Source: Octopus sinensis (Eukaryota). From it: a stretch of 64,000 nucleotides of DNA. Location of the stretch: the NCBI RefSeq assembly GCF_006345805.1, contig NC_043004.1, positions 29,884,001 through 29,948,000 of the forward strand, written 5' to 3'. The translations under genes were made by a program, and so were the position numbers. The notes below the pieces were generated by a model. The model saw only the letters and a list, made by a program, of their open reading frames with translations. It was not told the DNA's origin and made no database searches. Shown here one piece after another: positions 4,878-63,718 of this stretch; positions within the stretch are counted from its first letter, which is position 1, and each line of letters opens with the position of its first letter.

Positions 4878-5203
4878 TGTGACACTCCTGATGAAATCCT
4901 ACTGTTTAGTGGGTGGAGGAGTGATTATATTAGAAGTGTGCTGATGGCAGACTTGCATGCTACTCCCATCATTGCAGTATGTTACTAATAAGCATTCTTG
5001 AAGGTTGCTTCCCAGTGAAGAATTTGTAACAGGAACTACACAATAACAGTGGTTGTGAACAATACCTTGCTATTGTACATATTTAGATTTGTGTTCATTC
5101 ATTATCACTTTTTATTTTTACTGGAGTCACTGAAACTGCAAGCAACAATCATCCAGTTATTGAGAGAAGCCTCTAAAAAGTTGTTTGATATCCTAGAAAT
5201 AAC
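4878..5203 (+). mobile_element. ~330-bp interspersed repeat, copy 1, with a decayed hammerhead-like 5' end
   Basis: Colinear with 13694-14031 along its whole length; starts ACACTC-CTGATGA (4888-4894) with partly complementary GAAGTGT at 4933-4939. Confidence 0.75.
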
Positions 5204-6458
5204 AGTGACGTTACCCTCAAATTACATTCTTTTTTTAATAAAAAAAGAACACATTGCATAATGTAGTCCATGATGTATATATAAAGTCATGGCTGGAACA
5301 TCTTTTGATTATAGGCCTGCCTTATTAGGATTGACCTGAGGCTAAGCAACTATTTCTCATCAACAATCTATTCTAATATTATTTTTACCAATTACTATTT
5401 TACCTTTGTCATATCCACATAATTGACAATGTTTCCATGGTTTCTGCAACCATTTACAAGTTCACAGTTACAATCTCCACAGTGTTTCACTTTCAAAGTC
5501 CCTGTTTCCATGGTTCAAATATATTGAGATGATGGGGAGGCCAGTCTGATTGCAGACTGCCATCTATTGCGGTCCACCTTGTCAACTTCCAGTACATAAG
5601 GCAGTGATGGTATGGCCATCAAGTGGAATTTAAACTCAGAACTATTTAAAGAGCTAGAGCAAATATTGCAACACATTGTCCAGTAGTCTAACAGTCCTGC
5701 TAAGCCATTGTTGTGGACATGTAATTTGTTAACTTTATAAAGTTACAAAAGACAACATTGAACTCAGAGTTTGGGCAGATATTTCAAGTGATCCTACTTA
5801 ATGTTCTAATGACTCAGCTATTCCACTGCCATGGAATCAGCTTGGCTTTATTTGATATTATTTATATTCATATATTTGCATTGCTTTTGATATAATCCCT
5901 TATGTGTACAATTATGTTTCCAAAGGGTTTATTTATCTATTGTAATTAGTTTCATTTAGCCAGCATAATTGCAAGTTGCACAGATCTGCTTTAGATAGAT
6001 AAAACTCTCAGCACTTCCATTTGTGCTTTGATAGGAGCAAATATAGCTCAGAAAATAATAGGCTTTGTGTAGAATTTATAATGAAAATATATTATAGATT
6101 ATCGCATTGTTAGTTATTGTTGATAGTAAGTAATAACTCTTGTATTAATGTTATTAATTTAAAGAGCTATTAAGTTTCCTGTGATTTTCAATTTAAAATA
6201 ATCTGTTGTTGAATAACTACATAAGTGAAAACATGTTTTGACAGTTTCATTGCTACAGGTGTGTGTGTGTATGAAAATAAGTAGAAATAATGAAACAGAG
6301 TTACCATATTTTACATTTACTGCTGTCAAGATGGTTAATGTCAGTCAACTCCCTATATATATTGTATATTTAAAGATGGTATCCTAATATGGCTGCAGTT
6401 CAATGGTTGAAACTAATAAAAGAATAAGAAAATATCCACAGTAGCTGAGACAGTAAGA

Positions 6459-6725
6459 ATGAGAAACTACTGGAATGCCGGAGACTCTGAACCAAAGAAG
6501 ACTGGTTCATTGCTATATTTTAGTGTCAGCTTCCCAAAGATTACACGTGTACCTTTTAATGAATTCATGGCTAAAGAAATGGAAAAAGAAGAAAAAATCT
6601 TGAGAAATCTTTCAACCGGTGGCAGTAATGATGCTGAAATCAGGTTCATTTTATAATATAAATATTCTTAGTTAAATAAATATTGTTTCAGTCTCAGCGT
6701 GAAATATGAACTGGAAGATACTTTG
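6459..6725 (+). other. Candidate coding exons of an unidentified protein
   Basis: Non-repetitive ORF MRNYWNAG...SNDAEI; possible 48-nt GT..TTTCAG intron 6644-6691 keeps frame into SLSVKYELEDTL, followed by a GTAAGT donor at 6726; no family recognised. Confidence 0.25.
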
Positions 6726-7182
6726 GTAAGTATTTGTTAAACTATGTTTGGAAGCCCCTGGAGGAAACTGAAGCTGAAGGAAGAAAAACTCAAGGAAATA
6801 ACAAAATTAAAAAAAAATTACTTTGGTATAAAGTATTTATTTGTTTTTAACATTTCTTTTTAATAGTATTATTGTATTTCAGTATGTTTTATTAATTGTG
6901 CTTTTTAAATGTTATCATTATGTTGCATCATCAAAATATGATTGTTTGGGTTTGCTTGTGTTAGTTTCTTGAAGAGACCATCTTGATTCTCTTAAAACTA
7001 CCTTTTTGCTGTATTTTTGAACTTATGCATATCCTGTAATGTGTTTTTCTTGAGTATCTCTAATTCTTAAAATCACTGTGTTTCATGTTATTTAAAAAGT
7101 TTTCGTGTTTGGTATCTGCAGTTAATATTTATAAAGTGTTGTTTTCTGCCAAAGGCTTTGTGAATAGAGGGTAGGGACCTTA

Positions 7183-7228
7183 TTAGCTGATGAAATTTTC
7201 ATGTACTAGTCAACGAAATATGTACTCA
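7183..7228 (+). ncRNA. Decayed type I hammerhead-like motif
   Basis: TTAG-CTGATGA(7187-7193)...GTCAAC-GAAA(7215-7218)-TATG-TA-CTCA; stems I and II eroded. Confidence 0.3.
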
Positions 7229-8999
7229 TTAACCTTCAAAATTGCAAGAATGTTAATAGCCAGATTTTTTTTTACAGCAAATAGGTCCAAACTGCCTTAT
7301 TAGAAAAACTGAATTTAATTGGTTATGGAAAGTTCAGTGAAATGGTAGGAGTAGTAGATCATTTACTTATATCTATGTTCTGAAATCATATCTTGCTAGA
7401 GTTGATTTAGCTGTTTGTCCTTGCAGAATTGATAAAACCAGTACATGCAGTATACATGGACTTAATTCATTTGATTGTCTTTCTTCCTTACAGTTTTGTA
7501 GGTGTGAGAAAATCAGAAACCCTTATTAGTTATTAACAAAACCTTTTGTCCATAGAATTCTATAATTGTATCTGTACATGTCCATCTCAGATGTCTCTAA
7601 TAATAATCCACATTAAATATTTATTAATATACACACCATATCTTTTGTCCTGCATCTATTAAAATCACTTGGCTATTGTTTTTCTTCATTTTCAAACCAT
7701 TTCAGATACAGCAAGCTCTCAGAGCAACAAACAATACCTTGCTTCATCAAGGTCAAACGTTCACAGCCGTTCTTTGTTATTGGTTTCAAGTTAAATTTTA
7801 TAACTTATCACCAGAGAAGTGACTGTTAAATTTACTGCTTTGATGTTTTACATTTTTATTTACTGTTGAAATTACTTCCTTCTGTTCACTTCAGCCATAA
7901 ACTATTTTCTTATCCAGACATACTAAACTCAGTAGCATTGTGTTTCACTCAGGTGACACATAGCTATGGTAGTTAGATTCATATCCATCATTTGAATATC
8001 ATTACAACTATTTGTATTGAAAGATTTGTTTCACTATATATGTTGTCTTTATAATATATTCGTTGAGAAATATATTCATTTATCATAATTTACAACAAAT
8101 TATTTTATGTGAAATTTGCAATCCATTTAGTAAATTTTTCATTTTACTTCAAAATTTTGAAGTTAACTGCTGAAGATTTTAATAAGAATGTTTGTGTGGG
8201 AAAAGTCGTGCTTTACATATGTTGTATGGAGTACTATATACGTTTCTATTTGTTGTACTCTGTACTACATATGTTAGTGTGTAGTCTGGAATATACCATA
8301 TTATGTGGTACTAATTGCACTCTGTATTACAGTAAGTAATAATTAAATTGAAAGTGTGAGCAAATGAGAGAGAGAAAGAAAATTATTCAAATTAAGTTAA
8401 ATCTAAAGATTGTGCTTCTGATTTATACTGTGTTGTACATAAATTGATACATGTTAATTAATGATGAACAGTCAAAAGCACAACTATGCAAATTAGGCCA
8501 ACCACCACACTGCTAGCCCAATTCACGACTGCTTTAGCAACAAATCTATGTTATTTATTGGAAAGGAAGCCAGGTATGTTTTCTTTGTGGACTGGTCAAC
8601 AAACTGTGATATGGTCTCTCAAGAGAGTCCGCACCTCTTCATCTACACATCAGTAATAGAGAAAGACTGTGTTTACATTCTTATTTAATCCACAGTGAGG
8701 CTTTTTAATATTCAAATTTAATTTTTAGTTGTTTATAAAATCATGACCTTACATGTGCCTTACAAAAAAATGAGTTTCAGTGGTACAGGTTTCCCATTCT
8801 CTGCATCTTGCTCAAAAATTATCTTTGCTGTATATTTTACACAGCATGGACTTCATATACACAGTTCTTTTATTCATTTATTGATTAGTACATCAAAGAA
8901 GAATATATATATAACTTTTTATCTGTCTTATATATATATATGAGTGTGTGTGTGTGTGTGTGTGCGCGCTCCTCTCCTTCTGCTATAGTTTCTTTCTCC

Positions 9000-9222
9000 A
9001 GTCCATGCTTCACTCAGTTGAGGGGCCTTGTAGGTACTAAGGACCCTCACCAGTGTTGGTGCCACATAAAAAAACACCTAGTATATTCAGTTATGTGGTT
9101 GGCATTAGGAAGGGCATCCAGCTATAGAAACCATGCCAAAGCAGACACAGAACCTGGCTTGTCTGTTTTTGTCAAACCATTCAACCCATGCCAGCATGAA
9201 AAATGGGATGTTAAATGATGAT
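9000..9222 (+). mobile_element. RTE-tail-like retroposon (ends ...GGATGTTAAATGATG)
   Basis: Shares GGTTGGCATTAGGAAGGGCATCCAGCT...AACCCATGCCAGCATGAAAA with many copies in the window. Confidence 0.8.
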
Positions 9223-13693: not shown

Positions 13694-14031
13694 TGTGACA
13701 CTCCTGATGAAATCCCACTGTTGGGTGGAGGGAATGATTATTGTAGAAGTGTGCTGATAGCAATCATAAATATGCTCTTATCATTGCAGTATATTTCTAA
13801 TAAGCATTCTTGAGATCTGCTTCCCAATTAAGAATTTGTCGCAGGAACTATACAGTAAAGAAAAGTTATGAACAGTTCCTCCCTATTTTACATATTTAGA
13901 TTTGTGTTTGCTCATTGTAACTTTATATCTTCACTGGAGAGACAATGAAATTGCAAGCAACAATCATTCAGCTACTTGATTGGCTATTGAGAGAAACCAC
14001 TAAATGGTTGTTTGATATGCTTGAAAATAAC
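13694..14031 (+). mobile_element. ~330-bp interspersed repeat, copy 2, with a decayed hammerhead-like 5' end
   Basis: Colinear with 4878-5203; CTGATGA 13704-13710, GTA-GAAGTGT 13743-13752. Confidence 0.75.
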
Positions 14032-14034
14032 TGG

Positions 14035-14300
14035 ATGTTAGAAATATATCCATACTAGGAATATCATTGTGGTAGCAGATCCAAAACGAGATAATTCAGG
14101 AATGGTGCAAAATGAAGCAATTTCAGAATAGGGGAAGCACAAGTTCCACCAGGCTGCACATGTCAGAAGGCTCACAGGCCAAAGGAACAGTTGTTGGGTG
14201 GTATCCAAGAGATCTGGAGAAAGCATATGGAAAATCTTCATAATACTGGGAAGATGTCGCAGTCCAGCAATTTGGACCTAAATGGAAGAGAAAGGCACAC
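14035..14300 (+). mobile_element. RTE-clade LINE 3' relic
   Basis: AAGCACAAGTTCCAC...GGTATCCAAGAGAT aligns with the RTE relic at 57380-57500. Confidence 0.55.
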
Positions 14301-18699: not shown

Positions 18700-19012
18700 T
18701 TAACAATTAAGGATAAAATCTTAACAAGAAATTATCAGGTTGTTAGCGTGAAAAACCTCATAAGAGAAAAAATCTGAAAATTTTTTCACATTTTGTTTAT
18801 TTTTGATGTATTCTGAATATGTTTCACTGATGAACAAATGATGTAAATAATACGTTAATTGCGAAATCACAAGTGATCTGAAACTAAATTCTTTTTCTAA
18901 ATGTCTTGCTTCGAGAGCTGTATTTGGGACGATTCGTTTATTTTTGGTAGTAATGACTTTGAAAGTCCCTCCTAGCGTGTGGCATTTATGTGTAATAATG
19001 CCCTCTATATAA
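18700..19012 (+). mobile_element. ~310-bp non-coding element inserted in (TA)n, carrying a hammerhead (Penelope-like terminal repeat/retrozyme-type)
   Basis: Flanked by (TA)n on both sides; opposite-orientation fragment of the same family at ~21940-22075 (GGATAAAATC...AAAAACCTCAT; GGCATTTATGTGTA.TAATGCCCT). Confidence 0.65.
18821..18884 (+). ncRNA. Type I hammerhead ribozyme, near-intact
   Basis: Stem I GTTTCA/TGAAAC; core CTGATGA 18827-18833; 12-position stem II with 2 mismatches including an A-C closing pair; GAAA 18863-18866; stem III A-TCAC-aa-GTGA-T; AUC cleavage triplet ending 18878. Confidence 0.85.
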
Positions 19013-20562: not shown

Positions 20563-20578
20563 AATAAATAAAATAAAT

Positions 20579-20954
20579 ATAAGAGAGTGGTCACTATATT
20601 GATCACTCTAGCACCAGTTAATCCAAAAGGTTTCAACCACGAAAATACATGTTTCCCATGAAAGCCAAGTACGACTGTTAGCTCACACGGACAGGGCAAA
20701 TAAAAAATAACAAAAATACAGATTATTTTGGGACAATTGTTTCGCTAAATGAATTAAATGTAATTTAATACATTTAATTCATTAATAGCGAAACAATTGT
20801 CCCAAAATAATCTGTATTTTTGTTATTTTTTATTTGCCCTGTCCGTGTGAGCTAACAGTCGTACTTGGCTTTCATGGGAAACATGTATTTTCGTGGTTGA
20901 AACCTTTTGGATTAACTGGTGCTAGAGTGATCAATATAGTGACCACTCTCTTAT
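20579..20954. repeat. Near-perfect fold-back palindrome, ~185-bp arms
   Basis: AAGAGAGTGGTCACTATATTGATC... is mirrored by ...GATCAATATAGTGACCACTCTCTT; centre ~20765. Confidence 0.95.
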
Positions 20955-21082
20955 TTATTTTGTGAAATATTTAATATGTTATAAAATATTAATAATCCAG
21001 GTTTCTCGTAGCACTAGGCCACTTGGTGTGGAATAAATATACTATTAAATTAGTATCTAATTCTCTCACCCTTATTAATTAA

Positions 21083-21318
21083 TGTATATATATATATATA
21101 TGTGTATATATATGTATATATATATATATATATGTGTATATATATGTATATATATATATATATATGTGTATATATATGTATATATATATATATATGTGTA
21201 TATATATGTATATATATATATATATGTGTATATATATGTATATATATATATATATATGTGTATATATATGTATATATATATATATATGTATATATGTGTA
21301 TATATATGTATATATATG

Positions 21319-22838: not shown

Positions 22839-23155
22839 CATTAGAAGGGAATAACAAAGCCAAGTCTGTGAGGACATTTATAATGCAGCGGTTTCTGGGA
22901 TATTATGGATAGCTCTTCATGAGAGACAGTGTGAGAAAATATTTGAGTTTGAATTCTTATGGAAAAGGAGGAGATAGGGATTTCCTTTATATTCCCTATC
23001 TCATCCTTTTCTGTAGTAATTCAAACTCAGACATTTTCTCACATCATCTCTCATGAAGGAATGTCCATAATATCCCAGAAACAGCTGTAAGACTATTTCG
23101 TTGTAAATGTCCTAAAAACTTCTCACAGGCTTGGCTTTATCTCATTCTCTCTAAT
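22839..23155. repeat. Degenerate fold-back palindrome containing a hammerhead relic
   Basis: AAAGCCAAGTCTGTGAG/CTCACAGGCTTGGCTTT, TTTCTGGGATATTATGGA/TCCATAATATCCCAGAAA, GAGATAGGGA/TCCCTATCTC; centre ~22987. Confidence 0.85.
23046..23093 (+). ncRNA. Decayed type I hammerhead motif
   Basis: ATCT-CTCATGA (G5 lost)-A-GGAATG..TATCCC-A-GAAA-C-AGCT-G-TA-AGAC; palindromic stem III and GUA site. Confidence 0.55.
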
Positions 23156-24064: not shown

Positions 24065-24081
24065 GACTCCTGTCACAACCT

Positions 24082-24125
24082 GGGACCTTGAAGACTGCTA
24101 TAATGCAAGAAAGTATACTAGTCCC
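24082..24125 (+). ncRNA. Minimal type I hammerhead-like motif
   Basis: GGGAC-C-TTGAAGA-CTGC-tataat-GCAA-GAAA-GTATAC-TA-GTCCC: 5-bp stem I and palindromic stem III, in a ~210-bp insert between microsatellites. Confidence 0.6.
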
Positions 24126-24899
24126 TTAATATTTCATATTCTGTATTTCATCTATTCAATAAGACAATCAATACTTCATTTCATTTTACTAAATATATTA
24201 TTTATGCTATATATTCTGCATTCATATTATAAAGAATATAAATAAAACATAAAAAACAGAGTTGGAATTTCTTTGAATAATATATATATATGTATGTATA
24301 TATGTGTATATATATGTATGTATATATGTGTATATATATGTATGTATATATGTGTATATATATATATGTATATATGTGTATATATATGTATGTATGTGTA
24401 TATATATGTATGTATATATGTATGTATGTGTATATATATGTATGTATCTATGTATGTATGTGTATATATATGTATATATGTATGTATCTATGTATGTGTA
24501 TATATATATATATATGTGTGTATTTGTCAACCAGTGTTTGTGTGTTTATGTCTCTATAACTTAGTAGTTTGGCAGAAATATGCTGATAGAATAAGTACCA
24601 GACTTAACAAAAAAGAAGTACTAAAATTTCTTCAAGTCAGTGCTCCAGCATGGCTGCAGTTTAATGACTGAAAGAAGTAAAACATAAAAGATGTATATCT
24701 GACTTTTCCCAGTGATATGATTTGGGGTTCAGTCCCACTGCATGACACCTTGGGCACATGTCTTCTATTAGAGCCTTGGATCAACCAAAGCCTTGTGAGT
24801 AGATTTGCTTGAGGGAAACTGAAATATCATTATGTGTGTATGAGAGTGCATATAGCAGGAAATATAATCTGTTAAGGCAGGTAATTTGTAAAACTAAAA

Positions 24900-33736: not shown

Positions 33737-34115
33737 CATCATCATCCATTGTTTAATGTCCGGGTTGGACGTTTCGACCAGGGTCTGGGAAGCCAGGAGG
33801 CTGCACCAGGCTCCGGTCTTATCTGGCAATGTTTCTACAGCTGGATGCCCTTCCTAACGCCAATCACTCTGTGAGTGTAGTGGGTGCTATTTATGTGCCA
33901 CCGGCACAGGTGCCAGGGGAGGCTGATAGTGACCACGATCAGTTGGTGCTTTTTATGTGTCACCGGCACAGAAGCCAGTCAAGGCGGCACTGGCATCGGC
34001 CACATTCAGTTGGTGCTTTTTACGTGCTGCCGGCACAGGTATCATAACTACAATTTCCATTTGATATTTATTTTGATGATGTACTTGACTCAATAGGTCT
34101 CCTCAAGCACAGCAG
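33737..34115 (-). mobile_element. RTE-tail-like retroposon with diverged internal repeats
   Basis: Same family as 61888-62480; 3 diverged TTTATGTGCCACCGGCACAG units. Confidence 0.85.
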
Positions 34116-36853: not shown

Positions 36854-38080
36854 CAGGGTGCTGAAGGTATTCGTTTGCATGATGACTGTATCAGGAAAAA
36901 ATTATATAGTACTTTTATTTTTTGAGATATATTCATCAAATTTGGGTCACTTTGTCTTCATGACATGTTCTATCAATCTCACTCAATGAACCTGCCTTTG
37001 GCCCCAATGACAGCCTCCAGGCCATCCCAGAGCTGGTCACAGATCTTCATTACCATCTCCTGAATGCCCTGGTAATCCTGGCCCTCAGCTTATCCTTCAT
37101 GTTGCAGCTGGATTTGTTGGTCTCTTGTTCCAACACACGCCACACAAAGAAGTCGAAGGGGCTGCAGTCAGATGAGTTGAGAGGCTAAATGTCAGGTGCT
37201 GTGTGAGTGAAAAACTTCTTCAACAGGGAGGCCTGGGTCTTCTGGCTAGTGTGTCAGGGTGAAGATTCTTGCTGCCACATGTACACTCTCCCTGCAGCTA
37301 TTGAGTTGATCCAAGGCTTCACCACCCATTCAGAACACAGATGTAGCTGTCAGTGTTCCACCTAAGGTTCTCAAGGAAGAAGTGATATGGCATGATGTCA
37401 CCTTCACTGCTGACATCAATGAAGATTGTAACAGGAAATTTCGTCTTTGAGTGAGACAGAGAGCCACTGTTTTTCTCAAAGTTGATCTTCTGCTCTTGGC
37501 AGAAATTCTTCTTGTTGGAGAAGAACCACATGTCTAGCTCCAACAGGTGTTGGTCAGCTTCTTGGTGTGCTTGAGTTACTTTTCCTGCATTACCATGGAC
37601 AGAAATTGGTCCCACCCTCATCTTGTAGGAAAAGTAACGAATGTCTTCATACACCACTAACTTAATGAGCCTTTCCATCCACACCTTTTTCATATGCATT
37701 GGCATTCTGGGATCATTGTTGATGATCTCTTGAATTTCAGTGTTCTGATGGTGTCAGATCATCAATCAGGGTTTTCAACTCTGTTGTTGCCTCATAGTTG
37801 AATCTTCCAGCTCCTTTACAACCTTTTCTACCATTCTGCAGCTGATGTTGAAGAAATCTGATATCTCCTTGTTTATCCTTCTGGCATGGATTCCAAGGTG
37901 GACTCTCTTCCTCTTCCATGAACTGAGGTGGGGTTCAAAATTTTCCATAGTCAATTATTCTGTGAAAAAAATAAAGTAAAAATGGTTATTGTTTTTAAGA
38001 AGAAAAAGACTAACAATGAAAGTAAAAACATGCATAAAATTAGCAGATGAAAACTGCAAACAACCACCATCCGCACCCTA
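36854..38080 (-). mobile_element. Tc1/mariner superfamily (DD37D/maT-like) transposon, decayed, about full length
   Basis: TIRs CAGGGTGCTGAAGGTA..GTTTGCA / TGCAAAC..CCATCCGCACCCTA; motifs WFFSNKKNF, TKFPVTI..VSSEGDIMPYHFF, PLNSSDCSPFDFFVW. Confidence 0.85.
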
Positions 38081-40679: not shown

Positions 40680-41660
40680 AGGTCTTCTCAAGAACCTCAT
40701 GTCACCAAGCATCTCAGTCCATTGTCATCTCATCAGTGAGGTCCAACATCCTGAGGTTGGTCCTCACTACTTCATCCCATGTCTACCTCTCCCACAGGTG
40801 CCATCCACTTGCAGTGATCAGCACTTCTTTATACTACTGTCTTCATTCATACACATCACATGTCCAAACCAACATAGTTTTCTCTCTTGCATTCTGCATC
40901 TGATTCCCATTATGCTCAACTTTTCTCTCAAACCATTTGCACTTCGTCGTACATGCACCCTGATGTTGCATATCCATCAGAGCACACAAGCTTCATTCTT
41001 CTCTTGTCTATGCATGTCTTCTGCATTCCTGGAATTTCTTCTCCAATTCTGCTACAGATACTGCAATAAGAATGAGGTCATCAGTACATAGTAGTTCCCA
41101 AGGGCAGCCAGTTTTGAGTTCCACTGTATTCATGCCAACTCCATCCTACTAACAGTACAGCTGTACATGGCTTGTACAGCTCTAACAAGCCACTCATCTA
41201 TTCCTAACTTCCTTAGAGACCACCTGATAATAGAACAAGTGACTCTGTCGAATGCTTTCTCCTAGTCAATGAAAGCCAAGTACAATGGTTTACTCTTTGC
41301 CAGATACTTCACCTGTAGCTGTCTGCCTAGGAAGAAGGCATCTGTGGTTCTCTTCTCAGGCACAAAACCACATTGCATCCCATCTAATTTAATTCTCTTC
41401 TTAATTAATTGAGCTATAACCCTTTCTGTAACTTTCATGACCTGGTCTACCACTTTGATACCCCTGTGGTTGTTTCTATCTAAGGTATCACCTTTACCCT
41501 TGTAGTAACTAACTATAATACCATCACAGCAGTCATTGGGGATGATGTCTACCTGGATAACCTGATTAACTATACAAGTGAAGAGGCTGTATCCTACACT
41601 GCCAAATATTTTAAGCATCTCAGCGCTGATTCCTGATGGTCCAGGGACTTGCCTTGTCTT
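40680..41660 (-). mobile_element. RTE-clade LINE reverse transcriptase pseudogene (internally deleted)
   Basis: GPSGISAEMLK, YKGKGD..DRNNHRGIK, QCGFVPEKRTTDA, LAFID*EKAFDRV, LLCTDDL (YADD equivalent), WFGHV..GRGR. Confidence 0.93.
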
Positions 41661-42219
41661 TATATCCGGTATTAATTTTGTTTTAGAAGACTTGTCTTCT
41701 GAGTACAGGACAGTGTCATATGTCTTATCTATCTATAATACTAATTACAGTAAAATTAAGTAATTAGTCATCCATTTGCTTATCAAACTTTAGCCATAGA
41801 ACACTATTAGATAACATAATAACACTTAAATAGCATAATAAAGCATAAAATGAAAAAAAAAGGAAATAAAAAAAATAACACAAAATAAATAAATGTGGAA
41901 AGGAAAGTTGAAAAGGAGGTCGAGAGTGTTTACAATCAAATTATAAAAGAAAACGTGACTCTAAGTAACATGGCTTTTACTATGGTTGTGGATCACTGGG
42001 TACATATGCTCTAAAAGAACAAATGTGAAGGGGGTGAAATTTCCCACAAGACTGGTTTTGAAGCATGAATTGCTCATATACACACACACACTCATGCATA
42101 TGCATCATATGTATGCATCCTCAAAAATTCACACATACACACACACACACATACGCACTTACACAGCAACGATCACTGTTTAATTCTTTCAAACCCTATT
42201 CCTGTTGTGAGTGTGTGAA

Positions 42220-42251: not shown

Positions 42252-42273
42252 TGTGTATATATATATATATATA

Positions 42274-42667
42274 CTAGCAGTATTGCCCGGCGTTGCTCGA
42301 GTTTGTAAGGGAAATAATTATATAAGCATTTTTAGAGATGTAAAGTATAATAGCCATCTCAATATGGCTAACCACAAAGGGGGAGGGGTGTTACTGTAGC
42401 TTTTTACGTTCTGAGATTTAATAATAAATTTTAGAGAGTTACTTCCCTTATATATGTCAAAAATGGATTAAAAATGGGAAAAATTGATGGTAAATTTTTT
42501 TTAAATCGTAGACTCATCGTAGACGCGCGCTAATACCCAGACGGTCTCGATATGAATCACGACTATAAGATACCCGGTTTTGGTTAAACTGCACCGCAAA
42601 ATGTGGGAGTAGTTAGGAATCTAAATCGTAGGAGACAGACACACAACCTCACTTTTATATATAAAGA
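42274..42667 (-). mobile_element. Non-autonomous Helitron
   Basis: Minus strand starts A|TCTTTATATATAAAAG and ends with hairpin (CTCGAGCAACGCCGGG)...CTGCTAG|T. Confidence 0.85.
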
Positions 42668-42829
42668 TTTCCTCTATTTACATAATATTGAGGTCTCTTT
42701 CTTTCTTTTGTTATCTTACTGTTTTTACCAATATACATATATATATATACATAAATATATATATAGTTACAGAGATGTACTTGCATAGCAAGTGACTTGA
42801 TCTGAGATCGTGTGCTGGAACGAAAACAG

Positions 42830-43088
42830 TTGCAGCGTTGAAGGTGTTTATAAGCCATTTAAGAAACACACAAAAACCGTTAGATTCACTTCAACATTTA
42901 AATTTAATTTGTCAAAATATTTTCGTCGCTTTGAGACCGCGACCTGTTAGCACGATATTTTTGTCAGTGAACAGGTCGCGGTCTCAAAGCGACGAAAATA
43001 TTTTGGCAAATTAAATTTAAATGTTGAAGTGAATGTAACGGTTTTTGTGTGTTTCTTAAATGGCTTACAAACACCTTCCAGGCTGCAA
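42830..43088. repeat. Fold-back palindrome, ~118-bp arms, 22-bp spacer
   Basis: TTGCAGCGTTGAAGGTGTTT...GACCTGTT / AACAGGTC...AAACACCTTCCAGGCTGCAA; lies in (TA)n context. Confidence 0.95.
42960..43010 (+). ncRNA. Minimal type I hammerhead with G3-C8 core variant
   Basis: Stem I TTTGTCA/TGGCAAA (TGACAAA in the mirror arm); core GTGAACA 42967-42973; stem II GTCGC/GCGAC; GAAA 42994-42997; palindromic ATAT loop. Confidence 0.7.
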
Positions 43089-43106
43089 TATATATATACA
43101 CACATA

Positions 43107-43137
<31 letters not shown>

Positions 43138-43457
43138 GTGTATATGTGTATGCATGTATGTGTGTGTGTGTGCGTGTCTGTGCTTGTGATTGTCCTCCAC
43201 CACTGCTTGACAACGAATGTTGGTTTGTTTACATCCCTGTCACCTAGTGGTTTGACAAAGGAAACAGATAGAATAAGTACAATGCTTACAAAAATAAAAC
43301 TGGAGTTGATTCATTAAACTACAATTCTTCAAGGCATTGCCCCAGCATGGCCACAGACCAATGGCTGGAAAAAGCAGAAGAATAAAAGAATACATTCTCT
43401 GCTTTGGTCTTATGTCCAAGGCATGAGAAAGCTTGAGTTTACATGAGAAGGCCTAAC

Positions 43458-43725
43458 AGACCTGGTAGAAACAGCAGCCAAATCTCCCTCAAATCACACC
43501 TTACTGTCTTATGTATGTATATATATATGAGCCAATGAGGGGGACCTCTACATGGTAGCTAGACCTGGTAGAAATAGCAGCCAAATTTCCCCCAAATCAC
43601 ACCTTACTGTCTTATCTATGTATATATGTATGTATGAGCCTATGAGGGAGACCCCTACATGGCAGCTAGACATGGTAGAAATAGCAGCCAAATCTCCCTC
43701 AAATCACACCTTACTGTCTTATCTT
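43458..43725. repeat. ~105-bp tandem repeat, ~2.6 copies
   Basis: AGACCTGGTAGAAA.AGCAGCCAAATCTCCCTCAAATCACACCTTACTGTCTTAT at 43458, 43561 and 43668. Confidence 0.9.
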
Positions 43726-43828
43726 TCTGCTACTTGGATATAGGTCTTATATTCGTCGTAAAAAACTTTCCTGTCACACACTCACGCACACGCACACACA
43801 CACACACACACGCACCCTCACACACACA

Positions 43829-43865
<37 letters not shown>

Positions 43866-43866
<1 letters not shown>

Positions 43867-44229
43867 AGCTTACAATTTTATTGATATATTTGCGTGTCTA
43901 TGTGTGGAAAGAGGAAGTGGGAGGCAGAGTGAAAGAATCACTCACTACAGTAAGTGAATTACTTTCATTTTAGTCGTTGCCCACTGTGTGTGTGCGTTTG
44001 CGTGTGGTGTAAACCAGACTAAGAAAAGCATTTGACACACACACCAGAATGTGAGTTTTCTGTAAATTTTGCTTAATTGGAGTTTAAATTTTAAAAACTG
44101 GACCTGGCATGACGCGATGCATTGTACTCTTAAAAATGCTAGGTAAATTGTAATTGAAGAAATCCTATATTGTAGATTTGTATAACTCCCAAAGGGAGGC
44201 AGATAAAATCTGCCTTTTATAATAAGAGA
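43866..44229 (-). mobile_element. Probable Helitron 5' portion
   Basis: Minus strand begins A|TCTCTTATTATAAAAGGC like the other Helitrons here; no 3' CTAG found. Confidence 0.45.
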
Positions 44230-44322
44230 TATATACACATAATAACAATTATTTGAGGGAATATTAATCTACACTTACAGGGAAAAAATTCAATTTAGAA
44301 ATAATAAATCAAATTTCACACA

Positions 44323-49768: not shown

Positions 49769-49940
49769 TACATACATACATATACATATTTCGTTTTGGG
49801 ATTTGGTTTGCAAGATTCTTTATGTGAGTTCATGTGTTGAAGCATATTCTGTTGTGTCTGGGGAGAGTCATTTTCTTTTTGTGCCTTATAATTTAGCACA
49901 CTCAATAGTAAAATTTTCACTTATTTCTTATTTTTATTTT

Positions 49941-50023
49941 CCTAAAATTTCGTTGCGTCTTGCAGCCTTTTCAATAGTCTTGACTAGTGAAGACTATTGA
50001 AAAGGTTGCAAGACGCAACGAAA
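49941..50023. ncRNA. Short palindrome made of two inverted hammerhead-like cores (U3-A8 variant)
   Basis: CTA-TTGAAAA-G-G(T/C)TGC-aagac-GCAAC-GAAA on both strands; the minus copy continues TTT-TAG. Confidence 0.5.
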
Positions 50024-50059
50024 AGTACTAAAAGACTATCAGGGAAGGAAAGAAAGGTT

Positions 50060-50094
50060 GTTTAATATTTCAAGCAAAGCTCTTCTTCAGAAAC
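50060..50094 (-). ncRNA. Minimal type I hammerhead motif
   Basis: Minus strand GTTT-CTGAAGA-A-GAGC-ttt-GCTT-GAAA-TA-TT-AAAC; differences from GCTC-GAAA-CG look like CpG decay. Confidence 0.7.
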
Positions 50095-50306
50095 AGGAGA
50101 CAGAGGAAAGTTCAAGAGAAAAGGAAGACGGAGGAAAAAAATTGGCCAACAATCCACATGTAGTTACATATGTATAAAGTGTTTGAAGTGGTGTACAGAT
50201 ATTGTATATTGAGAAAAGGAGGCAATCAGAATTTTGGATAATTCTTTATTAGCATTTTCATTCATTTATCGAACTCATCAAGACAGACCATTTTGATTTT
50301 GTCTTG

Positions 50307-52356: not shown

Positions 52357-54572
52357 AACTGTTGTGATGGGGTTAAAATGAACTTCATTTGTCACATGTT
52401 TGTGTAGTTGGAGGTATTAATTATGTCATTAATTTTGTTGGAGGAACCTCTGCCTGTTAGGAATAGCAACCTAAATCCCCTTCAAATCATGCCTTCCTTA
52501 AAAAGGAAGAACACATTGGATAAGCTACATCTGAAAAATTGATGGGATGGCCTTATCTAGAATGCCTATGATCCTAATCCAGCTCAATAAAGACTGACCT
52601 ACATTTAAACAATGTTGTTTGAACTATTCAATTTTATTCAGAACTATGAGATACCGAACTAAAACACACCGGATCTTTGTAACTTTCCCTCTATTTAGCA
52701 TTTGGTATGAGAAAATTATTCATGGGTATACAACTAAAGTAACAATCTGATGAATGACTGATAACATCTAATGTGGTAAATTCAATAATGGTTTATTATT
52801 TGATTCACTTAGTAGATGAGCAAAGTTGTTTGATGAAAATAGGAACAAAAATGTGTTCTTCCAAACCAACAAACTTGTGTCACTTTTTATGATTAAATAA
52901 TCATATCTTTTTGTTTTTGTGTAAGAGCAGGAAAAGAGGCAATTCAAGTAATTACTGGTACTTATAATCAATTATTCAGTGTTAATTCGGTCACCTTGAA
53001 AAGAGCAACTATCAACTACTTTGGTGTTAATGACGTGTTGTTGGTAACAAAAGCTATCAGCTACCTTTAGAGGTTCATCCTAGCATTACAAAAATCTATT
53101 TTATTTTACAAGAGCACTTAGTATTTATTGCACCAGTGCACTTGGTATTTAGGAAATCTACCTCCTCTGAAAGTTAGCTACATTGTTTACACTATACATA
53201 CCAATTTCAATTTTCACTGAACCATTCACTCCATAGTGTATACACATCCTGTATACACAAACTTATTAATACTTTCAAATACTACAAAGCTTAGGTCTTA
53301 TACCAACTCCCCCATGCAATTTCCTCCCACCCGGTGCAACCTATCGGCTCCAGCACTTCCCGTTTTCCTATATGTGCGTGTATATGCGTATGTGCGTGTG
53401 TATGTATGTGTATGTGCACATACGTGTACGTGTGTGTACATATATATATATATATACATGTGCGTGTGTGTGTGTGTGTGTGGGTGTGTGTATGTGCATA
53501 TACGGTTCCCTGCATTTTCCTCCTATATATACAAATTTTGTCTCCCATATATGACTTCTTTTCCCTAAATATTTCTTCTCCTACACCCATATCCTCCCTA
53601 TATAGTCTCTTTAATTCCCTATATCTATACCCTTTCACATTTCTAACTCGGATGTTGAACGCACACCGCCAAACTCCACTTCCCACCCTTCCAATTTTCA
53701 GTTCCCCCCGCCCGCCCCTACGTTTAACACACACCTCTAACTTTCAACCACCTTCATCTCATGTTAAATTTTACCAAATTATATTTTTATCTTATTTTAT
53801 TTTATTTTTATTTTTACTTTTATTTTTACTTTTATCCTACTTCCATTTATTTTTATTTTTACTTTTATTCTACTTCCATTTTTCTCATTTTTATTTTCAT
53901 CCCTTACCTTAACTCTTATAATTTTTATAATTCTTATATTTCATTTCTAACTATTACATTGTATTTCTTATTTTTTATACTGTATTTTTTATTTCTAATT
54001 TTTACCCTTACCCACATTCTTACCCCTAACTTATCGCTTTATACCTCTATATATGTTTATTTACTTACCTATAGATCCACTTTTTGACTATACGAGCGTC
54101 CGCGTACGTGTGTATACGCATACATACATATGCACGCGCATGTATGTACATGCATATTTCGATATCTTATAGCTATACCCATGTGCGCGTGTGTCTCTGT
54201 GTATGTGAGTGTATATGTGCACGCGCATACGGACACACAGCCGTGTGTGCGTGCACGTATAGACATGAGTACGTGACTGTTTACATACGTTCTTATATAC
54301 ATCCTTTAATATCTTATATCTAGACCTAGAGGCGTGGGCATATACGTGTGTGTATGTAGGGATGGGCGCGTATGTACATGTGAGTGTGTACGCGTATAGT
54401 GTCCGTGTATGCATGCGGATATTCTGTTGTATGTATGTGTGTGTACGCGCGTGCGTGTGGGTGCGTGTGTGTTTATGTACATGTTTACACGCGAGTGCGT
54501 GTGTATGCTTATAGGCTTGGAGGCGTATATGTACGCGTGTATGTGGGTGTATGTATCCATGATGATATGTAT

Positions 54573-55292
54573 GTACTAGAAGTCCATTTAATTCAAGAAA
54601 CCAGATTAAATGCTCATCAACTCTGATTTACAACACATTAGGTCCCTAGACGAAACTGTTGATTTACTGACAATTCTACAACTAAATTTTATCAATCTCC
54701 TGACCACCATGCTTGGTCCGTAACCTATATACATCCCTTATCTTTACATTCTTTTACATTTTTATCATGTTTTTATCATGTTTTTTTTACTCTTATTTCT
54801 ATTTCTATTTTTACTTTATAACCTTATGCCTTTACATTTACTTATATTTCTTTATATTTCTTTATATCCTTTATACCCCCTTTACATCTCCTTATAACTC
54901 TTTATATCTTTATGCTCTACATTTTTATATTTTTCTATACTTACACCTTTTATACATTTGTTATCCCTGGTCCCGAATTCTCGCCCCTCCATCTTCACGT
55001 CTATATATGTATTTATTTATTTACATTACCTCAACATCCAGTTTTTCCTCATTCTACATTGAGAGAAGAAGGAGATGGACGCTTCAATTCTATGCTGCTG
55101 CCGCATTATGTCGTACGCGAATGAGAGGATTCGCATCCCCAACCAAGAATTTTTGATGTAACACATGTCCTTGTGGAAGCTGTTGTGCGCGGCTGAAGAA
55201 GGCCACAGACATACATTATGCATTGTTATAAATCTGTCTAATGAAGGCCCGAAACATATGTACCGCTGAATCCTTCGCATCATGTTTTTATT
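54573..55292 (+). mobile_element. Probable Penelope-like element 3' end with hammerhead
   Basis: Possible GIY-YIG tail VLEVHLIQETR../LINSD, pyrimidine-rich UTR, HHR at 55189-55266, then (TA)n. Confidence 0.45.
55189..55266 (+). ncRNA. Type I hammerhead ribozyme, canonical core
   Basis: Stem I GCGG/CCGC; CTGAAGA 55193-55199; stem II GGCC...GGCC(C) with long loop; GAAA 55251-55254; C-ATAT-G stem III; GUA site ending 55262. Confidence 0.8.
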
Positions 55293-55304
55293 TTATTTTG
55301 ATCA

Positions 55305-59034: not shown

Positions 59035-60300
59035 TTACTTGTGTGCCCTCACAGTCCCACAGGCATTAGTCCTCCTTGTCTGCAGCTGCAGGAAGAGGTC
59101 CAGACTGAAAAACCAGTTGTCTATATAAATATTGTAGCCTTTGTCAAACAAGTTTACATTCAGTGACAACACAACATCAGTTGTCACTAGAGTAGATGCT
59201 GGCAGATCCAATCTGTCCATACCAGTGTAGATTTTATAATTCCACATGTACCTACCGGCTCTGCCAGCTGACAGATCCAATCTGTCCTTACCAGTGTAGA
59301 TTTTATAATTCCACATGTACCTACCGGCTCTGCCAGCTGACTGGCATATTTTATAAATCTCGACTCCAAAGCTGGTACATTTGGTCAGGTTATATTGTTT
59401 GAATCAGAGCCTTCCCTTGAATTTCCACAAACTCTCGTCTGTACAAACATCCTTCATTGGGACATACATCGTTCTGAAATTTTCAGCCACTTCGTCAATG
59501 ATAGGACATATTTTGTGCAGCCTGTCATCTTTGTTCTTGCCTAAGTTGAAATGTAGATTTTGAAGAAGCATCAAAAATCGATTATGTGGCATCGTTTCCA
59601 GAAAGAAAGGTGTGAACATGGCTGGATCCCAATTCCAGTATGACACTAGTGTTGCTTTCTTCATGATATCCATCAGTATCAGTAGAACTTTGATTTTGTC
59701 CCCTGTAGTTGGAAACCAACCACCACCATGCTGGGGATGGTTTTCAGCATAGTCAATCATTCCGTCTGCTATATATTGGAATATTTCATCCGACAAAAAC
59801 TTGTGCAAGATTTCCAATGGCAAACTTCCATCTTCAAGGTTTGCCTTTATGCCAGGCATACCAGTACCATGCTGTCGGACAAAATTGTCTCTTGCTCGTC
59901 ACATGACATTCTGTTGTCCAGGGCCATTCACTGCTGCCCGCTTGTATCTTTGATTCACTGGAATATCATCATCACTATTGGAATCATCTGATTCTGAACT
60001 TGGAAAATATTCACTCTCTGAGTCATTGTCCAAACCGGAAAAAACAACTGGTGTGGTGATGGAGTTTAGTTGGCATGACAACTGTAAATTCGCTAAACAG
60101 GATGTGAAGATGAAGTTGACAGAGCCAGAGTAGCAAGACCAGCCTATTAGGTTGTAAATATTTACATGAAACAAATAACCAGCCTATCAGTTAGCAGGTG
60201 CACCGGTGACTAGTTCTAAGTCAGACAGCGTATAATTACATTGACCAATTTGAAGCATATACACTGCATGTGTAAATTTACAACAACCATCTTAAAAGGG
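59035..60300 (-). mobile_element. piggyBac transposon, 3'-truncated; PGBD4-like transposase pseudogene
   Basis: TTAA-CCCTTT left end at 60300; MPHNRF..LHFN..DRLHKICPII, TDESLWKFKGRL*FKQY, IYIDNWF, NACGTVR. Confidence 0.93.
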
Positions 60301-60351: not shown

Positions 60352-60686
60352 AGGTGCAGCCATGGCTGTGTGATAAGAAGCTTGCTTTCCAACCACATAG
60401 TTCTGAGTTCAGTCCCACTGCGTGGCATCTTTGGTAAGTGTCCTCTAAAAGCCTTGTGAGTGGACTTGGTAGATGGAAACTAAATTAAGCCTGTCATACA
60501 CACAGACACACAGACACACATACAAACATATATTTCTGTGTGTGTGTCTTTGTGTCTGTGTTTCACTCCTCCACCATCGATTGACAACCGATGTTGGTGT
60601 GTTTATGCCTCTGTAACTTAGCAGTTTGGCAAAGAAAGACTGATAGAATAAGTACTAGGCTTACAAAGAATAAGCCTTGGGGTCAA
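60352..60686 (+). mobile_element. CORE-like SINE with truncated 3' module
   Basis: TGGCTGTGTGATAAG...GAGTTCAGTCCCACTGCGTGGCA...AGAATAAGTACTAGGCTTACAAAG. Confidence 0.85.
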
Positions 60687-60693
60687 AGATATA

Positions 60694-61215
60694 CTGTAAA
60701 TCCTCGAGTATAATCCGCATTTTTTCTCTAAAATTTAAAGGTCAAAATCCTTAGTGCGTACTATATATGAGGTTAAAAATGAAAAATATTTTCTAAGCAA
60801 TGTCTGAGTCTCTATTTGCTGTCCGGCAATGTTTATTCAGACACGTTGTGTGATGTCGGGCGCGAAAATACATTAAGCTAAGCCTAAAAGCAATGAAGTC
60901 ATAAAAGAATTATCCATAACTTGCAGTAAGCAACATTTATTAAAATAAAAGTATTCAGAACACAGAATAACATATAACATAAACAATTTGCAAACATATT
61001 TACATTCCCATATAACTGTTAAGAACATCACCATTATTGTATTACGCATGCGCAGAAGTGTTTGTTCAACTAGGTATTGCTGGCTTAATTACACACAACT
61101 CAAGTTAGAGAAGGGGTGCGTATTATCCACAAGGTTTAGGTTTTTCAGAGGTACTGCCTCCTAAAAATTCCCTGTGTATTATACTCAACGGCGGAATATA
61201 CTCGAGTATTTACGG
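60694..61215. mobile_element. Non-autonomous Tc2/pogo-like DNA transposon
   Basis: TIRs CTGTAAATCCTCGAGTATAATCCGC / GCGGAATATACTCGAGTATTTACGG, TA duplication. Confidence 0.85.
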
Positions 61216-61238
61216 TATGTGTGTATATTATATATATA

Positions 61239-61694
61239 CTAGCAGCTAAGCCCAGTTTCACCTGGTTGGTTTGGATGATGTGGCTGTAAAACCTTCTCTG
61301 TATAAGCATTCAGCTTGTTTGGGCATACGTTAAAAATCAATTTTAGAATGACTTTTTCCTGTCAAAATGCTAAAAATATCTGACCAACAAAAAAAAAAAA
61401 AACAGCCAAGATTCAACCAAATCAAAAAATAAACCCAAATAATAAGCAAACAAAGATGAACCATACCACTTCCATTGCATGCACACACGCACACACAAAC
61501 ACACACACACACACACATTCACATACCCCCTTTTACATACACACACAGAGTTCAAATGCTGTTTGATTATTTTTTCAGTGTACAATTTTCATCATCCCAC
61601 TACCAAGATGACATCACTCATTCCTTCCTTATTCATCTATCACCCTTTCCTTTCTCATTCATAAACACAAGAGTATTATTATTATTATAGTAGA
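61239..61694 (-). mobile_element. Non-autonomous Helitron
   Basis: Minus strand A|TCTACTATAATAAT start; CCAGGTGAAACTGG hairpin then GCTGCTAG|T end. Confidence 0.75.
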
Positions 61695-61887
61695 TTATCT
61701 CAGTAACCAACGGATCATTCCTGTAAAATTTTTTGCACAATTCCACCCAGACGTTTGACTGTAAATCCCAAGACAAGAAAGAATCACCCATGTCAGATTT
61801 ATATATATATACATATATATATATATATGTATATATATATTTATATATATATATATATATATTTATACACACACACACACATATATA

Positions 61888-62482
61888 TCATCATCATCAT
61901 CAATTAACGTCCGCTTTCCATGCTAGCATGGGTTGGACGGTTCAACTGGGGTCTGGGGAGCCCGAAAGCTGCACCAGTCCAGTCAGATCTGGCAGTGTTT
62001 CTACAGCTGGATGCCCTTCCTAACGCCAACCACTCCGAGAGTGTAGTGGGTGATTTTATGTGCCACCGACACAGGTGCCAGACGAGGCTGGCAAACGGCC
62101 ACGCTCGGATGGTGTTTTTTATGTGCCACCGACACAGGTGCCAGACGAGGCTGGCAGACGGCCACGCTCGGATGGTGTTTTTTATGTGCCACCGACACAG
62201 GTGCCAGACGAGGCTGGCAGACGGCCACGCTCGGATGGTGTTTTTATGTGCCACCGACACAGGTGCCAGACGAGGCTGGCAGACGGCCACGCTCGGATGG
62301 TGTTTTTATGAGGCTGGCAAACGGCCACGATCGGATGGTGCTTGTTACGTGCCCACAGCACGGAGGCCAGTCGATGCGGTACTGGCTACGGCCACGTTCG
62401 GATGGTTTTCTTATGTGCCACGTGCCACAAAGATACAAATTCCATTGATGTTCATCTATTTTGATTTGTTTTGATTTGATTT
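61888..62482 (-). mobile_element. Young RTE-tail-like retroposon with internal VNTR
   Basis: CpG-rich copy of the family with (CAT)n end. Confidence 0.88.
62054..62340. repeat. 62-63-bp tandem repeat, 4 copies plus a partial
   Basis: ATGTGCCACCGACACAGGTGCCAGACGAGGCTGGCA... at 62058, 62121, 62184 and 62246. Confidence 0.97.
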
Positions 62483-62505
62483 TCACTATATATATATATA
62501 TATAT

Positions 62506-62598
<93 letters not shown>

Positions 62599-62684
62599 AG
62601 AGTTTATGAAAAAACAAAAGATGAAGACAGGAGGTGTACAAAACAAACAGATGTATTAGTATAACACTCAGGAATAGAAAAAGT

Positions 62685-62720
62685 CTTTTACGTTTCGAGC
62701 CTACGCTCTTCTACAGAAAG
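62685..62720 (-). ncRNA. Minimal hammerhead-like motif with A6U core variant
   Basis: Minus strand CTTT-CTGTAGA-A-GAGC-gtag-GCTC-GAAA-CG-TA-AAAG, within element 62596-62770. Confidence 0.6.
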
Positions 62721-63083
62721 GATCACAGGAAAAACAAGGAGAGAAAAAAATGTGTGTAGTGGCTAACTACACACATGTCATGTGTGGAGAAGTGCATGTC
62801 ATGTGTTGAGAAGTTTGTGAATGAATGAATGAAGAATGTAAGGGGAGGTAACTGATGATCGTTATTACCGGGGACAGGGGAAGTAATTGCTCATCTTTTG
62901 TGGGGTGGGGATGAATAAATATATATATATATATACAACGTAAAAAAAATAAGGTAAAAGTTTTTATTTTTCATTCATTTCGAAAATTGCTCTTAAATGT
63001 GGTTTTGGACGTTTTGACTGCTTCTTCCAGTGTGTAAAAAAATTACCTGTTAAAGGTAGTTTTCTCTTGTGTTTAACTGTACA

Positions 63084-63126
<43 letters not shown>

Positions 63127-63138
63127 GTACTAGTAGAT

Positions 63139-63218
<80 letters not shown>

Positions 63219-63222
63219 AGAG

Positions 63223-63718
63223 AGAGAACAAACATCAAATTCGAGTCAACAACTTTATATATAACACCACACCTCCAAACATTTGATCATATATAAATAT
63301 ATAAATATTACCGAGATGCACTGAAATGGCCATAGATGTGTTTGACTTGATTTTGTGGAAATTTTTTGCTCCTGGACTTCAACCTACCATGGTTTTTATG
63401 ATATGAACTTTTCTGACATACTTTTTTGTTTGAGGGGAGTAAGAAAAAATTTTTTTTCGTTGATTGATATTTTATTTTATTTAGATTTTTAGTCACATGA
63501 CACACTTTAGAATTGTTAGTCAATTGTATATACCTTCTTGATAGGCTGGTCTGTATATCTGTATTTTTATTTGCATATATATTTTTTACCTTCTGTGTTT
63601 TTTTATATATGTATACTTTATATTTTTAAGGGCCATGGTAATATTTATATAAGATCAAATGTTTGGAGGCGTGGTGTAATATATAAAGTTGTTGACTTGA
63701 ATTTGATGTTTGTTCTCT
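63223..63718. repeat. ~85-bp inverted repeats around a ~325-bp spacer, between (TA)n tracts
   Basis: AGAGAACAAACATCAAATTC.AGTCAACAACTTTATATAT.ACACCAC.CCTCCAAACATTTGATC mirrored at 63637-63718. Confidence 0.92.

Follow-up and report, generated by a model that had tools for sequence, protein, structure and literature searches.

We analysed a 64,000-nucleotide stretch of the Octopus sinensis genome (the window; positions 29884001-29948000 of contig NC_043004.1, in a genome of 2.72 Gb) in which a sequence-only reading had noted about ten unrelated hammerhead-ribozyme elements, mostly inside (TA)n microsatellites. The window has 33% GC, and (TA)n is abundant in it. We found that eight of the eleven listed sites are members of high-copy families with a predicted type I hammerhead fold, and that the other three (4888, 13704, and 7187) are chance matches. 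The sites are best explained, with high confidence, as ribozyme-bearing terminal repeats of several families of Penelope-like elements (PLEs), together with two non-coding tandem units that were likely moved by the same enzymes. The observations behind this explanation are the fold, the copy numbers, the continuity of seven families with an endonuclease frame, two alternative 3′ ends, inverted partners, and 3′ ends adjoining (TA)n. Families are named below by window position, and L numbers denote fetched loci. The ribozyme features of the window are:

18821..18884, plus strand: predicted type I hammerhead of the 18827 family, core CTGATGA, stem I of 6 bp, hairpin stem III of 5 bp.
20567..21083, no single strand: two mutually inverted 3′ halves from a ninth family (20790), between (TA)n arrays.
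23047..23092, plus strand: damaged copy (G5 to C) of a predicted Hydra-type PLE hammerhead.
24082..24125, plus strand: predicted hammerhead at the 3′ end of a Neptune/Nematis-type PLE, insert 24066-24279.
42960..43010, plus strand: predicted hammerhead at the 3′ end of a Neptune/Nematis-type PLE, in an inverted pair with tail, 42766-43088.
49785..50024, no single strand: inverted pair of putative PLE 3′ ends, inserted into the 50090 copy.
50059..50095, minus strand: predicted minimal hammerhead at the 3′ end of a Neptune/Nematis-type PLE.
53245..55304, plus strand: 2.06-kb 5′-truncated putative Hydra-type PLE, ending at (TA)n.
62685..62720, minus strand: predicted minimal hammerhead at the 3′ end of a Neptune/Nematis-type PLE, insert 62596-62767.

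A strict type I descriptor (stem I of at least four Watson-Crick pairs, stem II of at least three, a palindromic or hairpin stem III, and a C3-G8 core) found 18827+, 55193+, and 50090- in the window, three motifs against none in each of 20 dinucleotide shuffles made in 500-nt blocks. Allowing any Watson-Crick 3-8 pair added 42967+, which has G3-C8 (four motifs against a mean of 0.07 and a maximum of one in 30 shuffles), in line with the earlier expectation that N3-N8 covariation matters. Allowing one core substitution or insertion further added 24087+ and 62716- (six against 0.2). These relaxations were post hoc, picked after the sites had been seen. The comparison with dinucleotide shuffles had been named beforehand as a possible refutation, and it gave three to six motifs in the window against 0-0.2 in shuffled sequence. 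At 23050 and ~49970 the window holds damaged copies, and both fail the scans that demand a stem I of at least four pairs; their family motifs are intact, in 17 of 20 copies for 23050 (CTGATGAA) and with a U3-A8 core for 49970.

All eight families are numerous in the genome. First-look candidates numbered 3,941 for 50090, 2,885 for 62716, 2,684 for 18827, 1,489 for 55193, 1,442 for 24088, 1,285 for 42967, 1,228 for 23050, and 1,149 for 49970. Exact matches to the ribozyme pattern were counted for 24088 (200), 42967 (3,407), and 49970 (1,271), with none for the reversed controls. Copies of these three families were sampled in genome order by ribozyme pattern; the counts for 18827, 23050, 50090, 55193, and 62716 come from best BLAST hits and are not position-ordered samples.

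The family motif, a core N3-UGA-N-N8-A followed by GAAA and UH and with a 3-8 pair, is unmodified in 18827, 23050, 42967, 49970, 50090, 55193, and 20790, and has one change in 62716 and in 24088. Five families have a C3-G8 core, that of 50090 being CTGAAGA plus an extra A. The 49970 family has U3-A8 (TTGAAAA, with a stem I of 3 bp) and the 42967 family G3-C8 (GTGAACA, 3,407 exact copies). The change is A6U in the 62716 family (CTGTAGA, 19 of 20 copies) and a one-base core insertion in the 24088 family (CTTGAAGA, 17 of 20 copies). Stems I-III pair in all families, and covariation was counted for 18827 alone. In its alignment of 17 distinct copies (one junction-truncated row was dropped) 94% of cells are paired, five of 20 pairs are changed on both sides, and the covariation score exceeds those of all 500 shuffles and all slid controls, so that a multicopy family with stem covariation, as foreseen by the sequence-only reading, was indeed found. 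Independent events are few because the rows fall into about four related subfamilies. The stem III word is perfectly palindromic in six of the seven window copies folded and therefore fits dimer cleavage (PMC4209133, PMC6765202).

The view that AT-rich, repeat-rich DNA produced every site by chance is true of 4888, 13704, and 7187, and it is in keeping with the best 150 of 312 Rfam matches, among which there was no hammerhead family, only microsatellite-driven microRNA matches. As an account of all the sites we consider it almost certainly wrong: the excess of motifs over shuffles, exact copies in hundreds to thousands where reversed controls gave none, and the compensatory stem changes already refute it for eight sites.

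BLAST among nine window copies, the ninth family included, gave no mutual match at E<0.001, and the eight families appear mutually unrelated. The count of about ten unrelated elements thus shrinks to eight of the eleven sites. A similar scan over 502,730 bases of fetched-locus flanks gave 16 matches, or 2.0 per 64 kb with settings that were not identical and flanks that were non-random, and the window is therefore near ordinary for this genome. The broader picture, of a genome with many retroelement families that are unrelated to one another, mostly target (TA)n, and carry type I hammerheads, was borne out.

Runs of (TA)4 or more lie within 300 nt on both sides of 18827, 24087, 42967, and 62716 (four of the 11 listed sites, or four of the eight real ones), and on the 3′ side only of 23050 and 55193. 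The remaining five listed sites are at least 388 nt from any such run, and 49970 and 50090 have no (TA)4 within 1.9 kb in the window. The window null for this proximity is 10% for both sides and 42% for either side. To describe the elements as mostly inside (TA)n was thus an overstatement, and what holds is that the 3′ end abuts (TA)n. Our genome-wide test scored (TA)3 beginning at most 8 nt from a 3′ end among copies with an end anchor found, 30 copies each being examined for 24088, 42967, and 49970 and 20 each for the other five families. The repeat was present in 23 of 24 copies of 24088, 17 of 27 of 42967, 19 of 19 of 62716, 14 of 18 of 18827, 17 of 19 of 55193, 15 of 17 of 23050, and 6 of 12 of 50090, against a background of 4-11% at random flank positions. 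Genome-wide, (TA)n therefore follows the 3′ end in seven of the eight families, above background as the earlier reading expected; the eighth, 49970, is taken up below. Seven inserts in the window are ~150-430 nt long and agree with the 150-500-bp non-coding inserts described before, but the insert that ends with 55193 is 2.06 kb long and starts in endonuclease codons.

Seven families, that is, all except 18827, appear to be 5′-truncated ends of coding PLEs. Their longer genomic copies continue into a GIY-YIG endonuclease frame on the same strand upstream of the hammerhead, and a reverse transcriptase (RT) was also recovered for 55193 and 62716. The proposed link of the families to RT and GIY-YIG was thereby made, and for these seven the idea of elements lacking open reading frames (ORFs) was not upheld. 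The endonuclease frames stop 234-1,858 nt upstream of the hammerhead, and RT precedes endonuclease in L087 and L303. Endonuclease was found in L199/L208 for 24088, in L283 for 42967 (Pfam GIY-YIG, E 3.6e-5), in L288 joined to L300 for 49970, in L299 joined to L301 and L294 joined to L302 for 50090, in L010 for 62716 (with an RT fragment in L008), and as a fragment in L121 for 23050 (41% to the L082 endonuclease, E 3e-8). Hunts for long copies gave the frame in one of seven stretches for 49970 and in two of seven for 50090.

In the 55193 family, L082 and L087 contain an RT frame (YRDD) and then the GIY-YIG frame, upstream of the hammerhead; both long copies fetched begin downstream of the position of the N-terminal RWK motif. 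L303 has PADKT, with DKT replacing DKG, a Hydra mark, and the L082 frame has a CxCx5C linker, CxxC before the conserved E, CxH after N, and no CCHH. The window insert 53245-55304 contains the final 16 endonuclease codons, a 1.86-kb 3′ untranslated region (UTR), and the hammerhead at 55189-55266. We class 55193, and 23050 by similarity, as Hydra type. Hydra elements (PMC8557442) are alike in the order of RT and C-terminal GIY-YIG, the DKT, the linker, the CxxC and CxH around E and N, the (TA)n target, and a hammerhead near the 3′ end. The 55193 family is longer than 4 kb, whereas Hydra elements are generally shorter than 3 kb, and its hammerhead differs from the one listed in the supplement of the same paper for Hydra-1_Obim, an octopus family with a (TA)n target.

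The CX2-5CxxC linker is whole in L208, L283, and L288 and partial in L010, and L299 does not span it; the CCHH endonuclease motif is present in L283, L010, and L299 and one residue off in L288 and L208. We class 24088, 42967, 49970, 50090, and 62716 as Neptune/Nematis type, the two clades being taken together. These clades share with our families the linker before a C-terminal GIY-YIG with cysteines in its core and the (TA)n bias, and are known here from endonuclease ends and one RT fragment only. RT motifs were set by eye against published alignment text. The suggested link to Naiads did not hold. The Naiad clade has the (TA)n target, 5′ truncation, inversions, and tail in common with these families, but its endonuclease is N-terminal, whereas the frames here adjoin the 3′ UTR, end 0.2-1.9 kb upstream of the hammerhead, and fit Hydra and Neptune/Nematis. 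We exclude Naiad because its members are without canonical hammerheads according to PMC8557442.

Copies of the families show a fixed 3′ end, variable 5′ ends, and inverted partners, all marks of PLEs. Two alternative 3′ ends occur in the 55193, 24088, 42967, 49970, and 18827 families, the second lying 30-130 nt further on and corresponding to the PLE tail, which has been mapped to two internal RT starts (PMC11167929). An inverted partner stands directly upstream in 14 of 30 pattern-sampled copies of 42967, 16 of 30 of 49970, and 3 of 30 of 24088. In the window, the 23050 insert (~22843-23153) has an inverted partner on its 5′ side, the minus arm of the 49970 copy (49941-49977) is short of one A while its plus arm stops after GAAA, and the 50090 copy spans 50022-50176, its 3′ end having been removed by the 49970 insert. 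A reading of 42967 and 49970 as a plain hairpin or miniature inverted-repeat transposable element was rejected on account of the N3-N8 pairs, tails, and endonuclease frames. For 24088, a circular reading of the 504-nt repeat in L196/L197 was rejected, as this repeat is a duplication of local origin that takes in a second family. A same-strand 42967 pair 2.55 kb apart in L285 was set aside too, there being no PLE frame between its members.

Some further features of these elements were seen in passing. The Hydra-type protein of the 55193 family (L082, L303) has an N/Q/T-rich insert of ~90 amino acids between RT thumb and linker; the 1.86-kb 3′ UTR of this family is made of simple repeats, and the long 3′ UTRs of other families are CA- or CT-rich. 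PLE ends nest beside each other. An additional abundant minimal-hammerhead family with core CTGACGA and a design akin to 50090/62716 is often found beside other PLE ends (L096, ~420 nt upstream of the central match, and the flanks of L196, L201, L276, and L304). The flanks of L001-L273 contain other hammerhead families once or twice, including another U3-A8 core, as well as two U6 variants that belong to 62716, CTGTTGA and CTGTGGA.

The sequence-only reading had also invoked retrozymes, non-autonomous retroelements that carry hammerheads. This idea holds for 18827 and for the ninth family, which it had missed at 20567-21083, and the other seven listed families are the putative PLE ends described above. 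In the 18827 family the sequence past the 3′ end recurs upstream of the ribozyme and closes a head-to-tail unit of 475-489 nt; the dimer pattern, with the same period, was seen at six loci, three of them with two whole ribozymes. The window insert (18700-19005) consists of an inverted tail piece and a 5′-truncated copy, flanked by (TA)n runs. The 20790 family, seen also in L305, L306, and C1:95539937-95548528, has a 535-nt tandem unit, a canonical core, and 1,271 exact matches, many of which stand in arrays at 533-535-nt spacing, with 13 listed matches at one locus; its arrays often diverge head to head. The halves at 20567-21083 have GAAA, the palindromic stem III, and the cleavage triplet, the core being absent. 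The longest stop-free frames are 76-125 amino acids in 18827 and 87-103 in 20790, and we judge both units to be non-coding. Circular folds have z scores of -2.0 to -5.1 for 18827 (four units) and of -7.3 and -8.1 for 20790 (two units).

At the sequence level, both units fit the definition of non-LTR (long terminal repeat) retrozymes (PMC7229834; bioRxiv 10.64898/2026.07.22.740005), with which they share non-coding head-to-tail organisation, one type I hammerhead per unit, GC below 50%, and a stable circle, here predicted from sequence; 20790 is the best candidate. They differ in their length, 475-535 nt against the quoted 150-450 bp, in bearing PLE insertion marks, and, for 18827, in being mostly sub-monomeric with few dimers. 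Copies of both have tails and inversions and end at (TA)n, which points to PLE enzymes as the likely agents of their mobilisation. A joint across the cleavage site in contigs of run X2 (four contig sets against one 18827 monomer) was set aside as evidence of circles, because any intact genomic copy gives the same joint. In contigs of run X15 the depth of the 18827 3′ end and tail (L275:1604-1739) was more than 100-fold that of the ribozyme, a hint from a poor measure, contig depth, that most 18827 copies are very short.

The short copies were probably inserted at (TA)n, 5′-truncated, by the PLE RT-endonuclease. By analogy with published PLE work, the protein would nick AT-rich DNA, and reverse transcription would begin at either of two internal sites that lie ~100-300 nt downstream of the ribozyme. 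We infer that in most events copying stops at a transcript start lying 13-35 nt upstream of the core, and such run-off copying would leave 150-250-nt inserts that share a 5′ end. The predicted ribozymes would cut mainly as dimers, because stem III is palindromic, and probably with low activity or aided by protein; where a copy is intact across the cleavage site, it would then derive from uncleaved or religated RNA.

The 5′ ends indeed lie close to the core, within 33 nt upstream in 28 of 30 copies of 24088, 27 nt in 28 of 30 of 42967, and 13 nt in 22 of 30 of 49970, with some extents shortened or undercounted because the ungapped measure stops at small indels. Exact 42967 counts are 5,603 at ~+85, 3,407 at the core, 267 at -51 to -23, and 79 at ~-380, that is, they drop 1.6-fold over 85 nt, 13-fold over 50 nt, and 3.4-fold over 340 nt; two things speak against taking this drop at face value, the upstream patterns being drawn from two or three long copies, so that they may miss subfamilies, and ~10% of core matches (3 of 30) being cargo in another repeat. 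In 24088 and 42967, long copies carry a TATA-like word ~30 nt upstream of the most frequent 5′ end. The 5′ hot spots are ~22-23 nt upstream of the core in 42967, ~32 nt in 24088, and 13 nt in 49970. An extra G that is absent from long copies was found in six of 11 hot-spot copies of 42967 (four clean, two ambiguous) and in four of 13 of 24088; at the 49970 hot spot it was rejected as cap evidence, since the inverted arm explains it. Whether the boundary reflects run-off to a capped transcript start is, in our judgement, evenly balanced, the alternative being that RT stalls at the ribozyme. Promoters do occur in PLE terminal repeats (PMC2377424; PMC3846280), and the same papers ascribe solo repeats to recombination or deletion. 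The short copies could instead be self-propagating non-autonomous elements, SINE-like (short interspersed nuclear element) solo terminal repeats that are themselves transcribed where they lie, rather than by-products of full-length PLE RNA. Such elements would account for the common 5′ end near the ribozyme in these three families and for the more than tenfold excess of short over long copies; yet in each such family there are long copies that join an endonuclease frame without a break, and the TATA-like word of 24088 and 42967, lying ~30 nt upstream of the shared end, is for that reason missing from the short copies. We regard self-propagation as improbable.

The hammerheads resemble those of PLE pseudo-LTRs (PMC4209133) in their type I order, stem I of 3-7 bp, extra base between A9 and 10.1, palindromic stem III, and U3-A8 variant, and in that a genome holds many unrelated families, mostly as solo truncated copies. 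They differ in the G3-C8, A6U, and inserted cores, absent from the compared portion of that main text, and in that several families are mismatched where G10.1-C11.1 is usual. Cleavage by a PLE hammerhead is partly recovered in the C3G/G8C double mutant (PMC11167929). Our literature searches found no natural G3-C8 or A6U core, the supplements of PMC4209133 and Lunse et al. 2017 (PLE hammerhead variants) lying outside their scope, and the novelty of the three cores is uncertain because this coverage is partial.

The fold might also be kept for a non-catalytic job, as a binding site or landmark for the PLE protein, with variant-core families that do not cut. The A6U core and the inserted core each characterise an entire family, A6 changes gave low activity (PMC3088659), insertion by a lizard PLE in vitro was unaffected by catalytic mutants (PMC11167929), and eight of nine frog dimers were uncleaved (bioRxiv 10.64898/2026.07.22.740005). 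Against this, the 3-8 position remains a Watson-Crick pair while its bases vary between families (C-G, U-A, or G-C), position 17 is never G among the window copies, and the stem III palindromes are kept, which is what selection for cleavage would keep. A non-catalytic role is thus possible, though we lean against it. We hold with similar diffidence the combined proposal that family-wide cores new to nature (G3-C8, A6U, and the insertion) cut as protein-assisted dimers and that the 150-250-nt inserts are run-off cDNAs reaching from the RT start to a capped 5′ end.

Several findings weigh against the explanation by catalytic, PLE-borne hammerheads. The A6U and core-insertion departures affect positions normally needed for catalysis throughout their families, the 18827 family has A.C at 10.1-11.1 in 13 of 17 rows, and for 18827 and 23050 folding predicts a minimum-energy structure other than the hammerhead. 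The 49970 family has (TA)3 at the 3′ end in just two of 19 copies and no (TA)n preference. Among the coding copies seen there was no intact full-length ORF, all being truncated or frameshifted, and Pfam gave no meaningful match for three of the four coding frames submitted. No autonomous partner was found for either tandem unit, none having been searched for.

Other features of the window are the three chance matches and a large repeat around the 42967 insert:

4878..5213, plus strand: not a hammerhead, a two-copy local duplication with its partner at 13694-14040, CTGATGA without GAAA.
7187..7235, plus strand: not supported as a hammerhead, single-copy in the genome, stems I and II unpaired.
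42257..44241, minus strand: young 2-kb composite repeat carrying the 42967 insert as cargo.

The duplicated copies at 4888 and 13704 (~340 nt, 77% identical, 8.8 kb apart) match nowhere else in the genome; they are not hammerheads because GAAA is missing after the core and they form only a local duplication. The site at 7187 was matched by none of the hammerhead descriptor scans of the window. The 42257-44241 repeat is common to all 19 other best 42967 matches and to three of 30 position-sampled copies; it also captured a 107-nt minisatellite (43458-43724) and other repeats, its copies are 94-99% identical, and we take its ends to be Helitron-like. Pfam searches with 81 of 120 stop-free window frames gave two matches only, both to piggyBac-type transposase, and 59038-59898 on the minus strand holds a broken element of this type (DDE_Tnp_1_7, E 1e-21 and 3e-13) with a 69-nt duplication. 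Minus-strand segments at 41262-41732 and 37319-37753, which had no Pfam match at 0.001, are presumably fragments of an RTE-type LINE (long interspersed nuclear element) RT and a mariner-type transposase. A SINE-like repeat at 61900-62475 and 33850-34050 has an internal 63-nt tandem array, with four copies 98% alike at 62054-62307.

Apart from some unusual cores, what we describe is mostly known biology, namely PLE terminal-repeat hammerheads and non-LTR retrozymes, and the density of motifs is no surprise to a specialist because elements of this sort are known already. For an octopus, expansion of PLEs has been reported together with numerous unclassified SINE families, ribozymes being unmentioned in the passages compared (PMC13282606). 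One genome here offers nine families with C-G, U-A, and G-C 3-8 pairs, an A6U core, and an inserted core, among them 55193 with young copies that are 98-100% identical, and these are test material for the open question of what the hammerhead does for PLEs. The sharp 5′ boundary is a specific prediction for transcript starts. If the combined proposal of dimer cleavage and run-off copying were true, it would explain the abundance of solo minimal hammerheads in animal genomes and would show a route from PLE ends to circular retrozymes of 480-535 nt. The PLE insertion marks on the tandem units are direct sequence support for a PLE-driven mobilisation of animal retrozymes.

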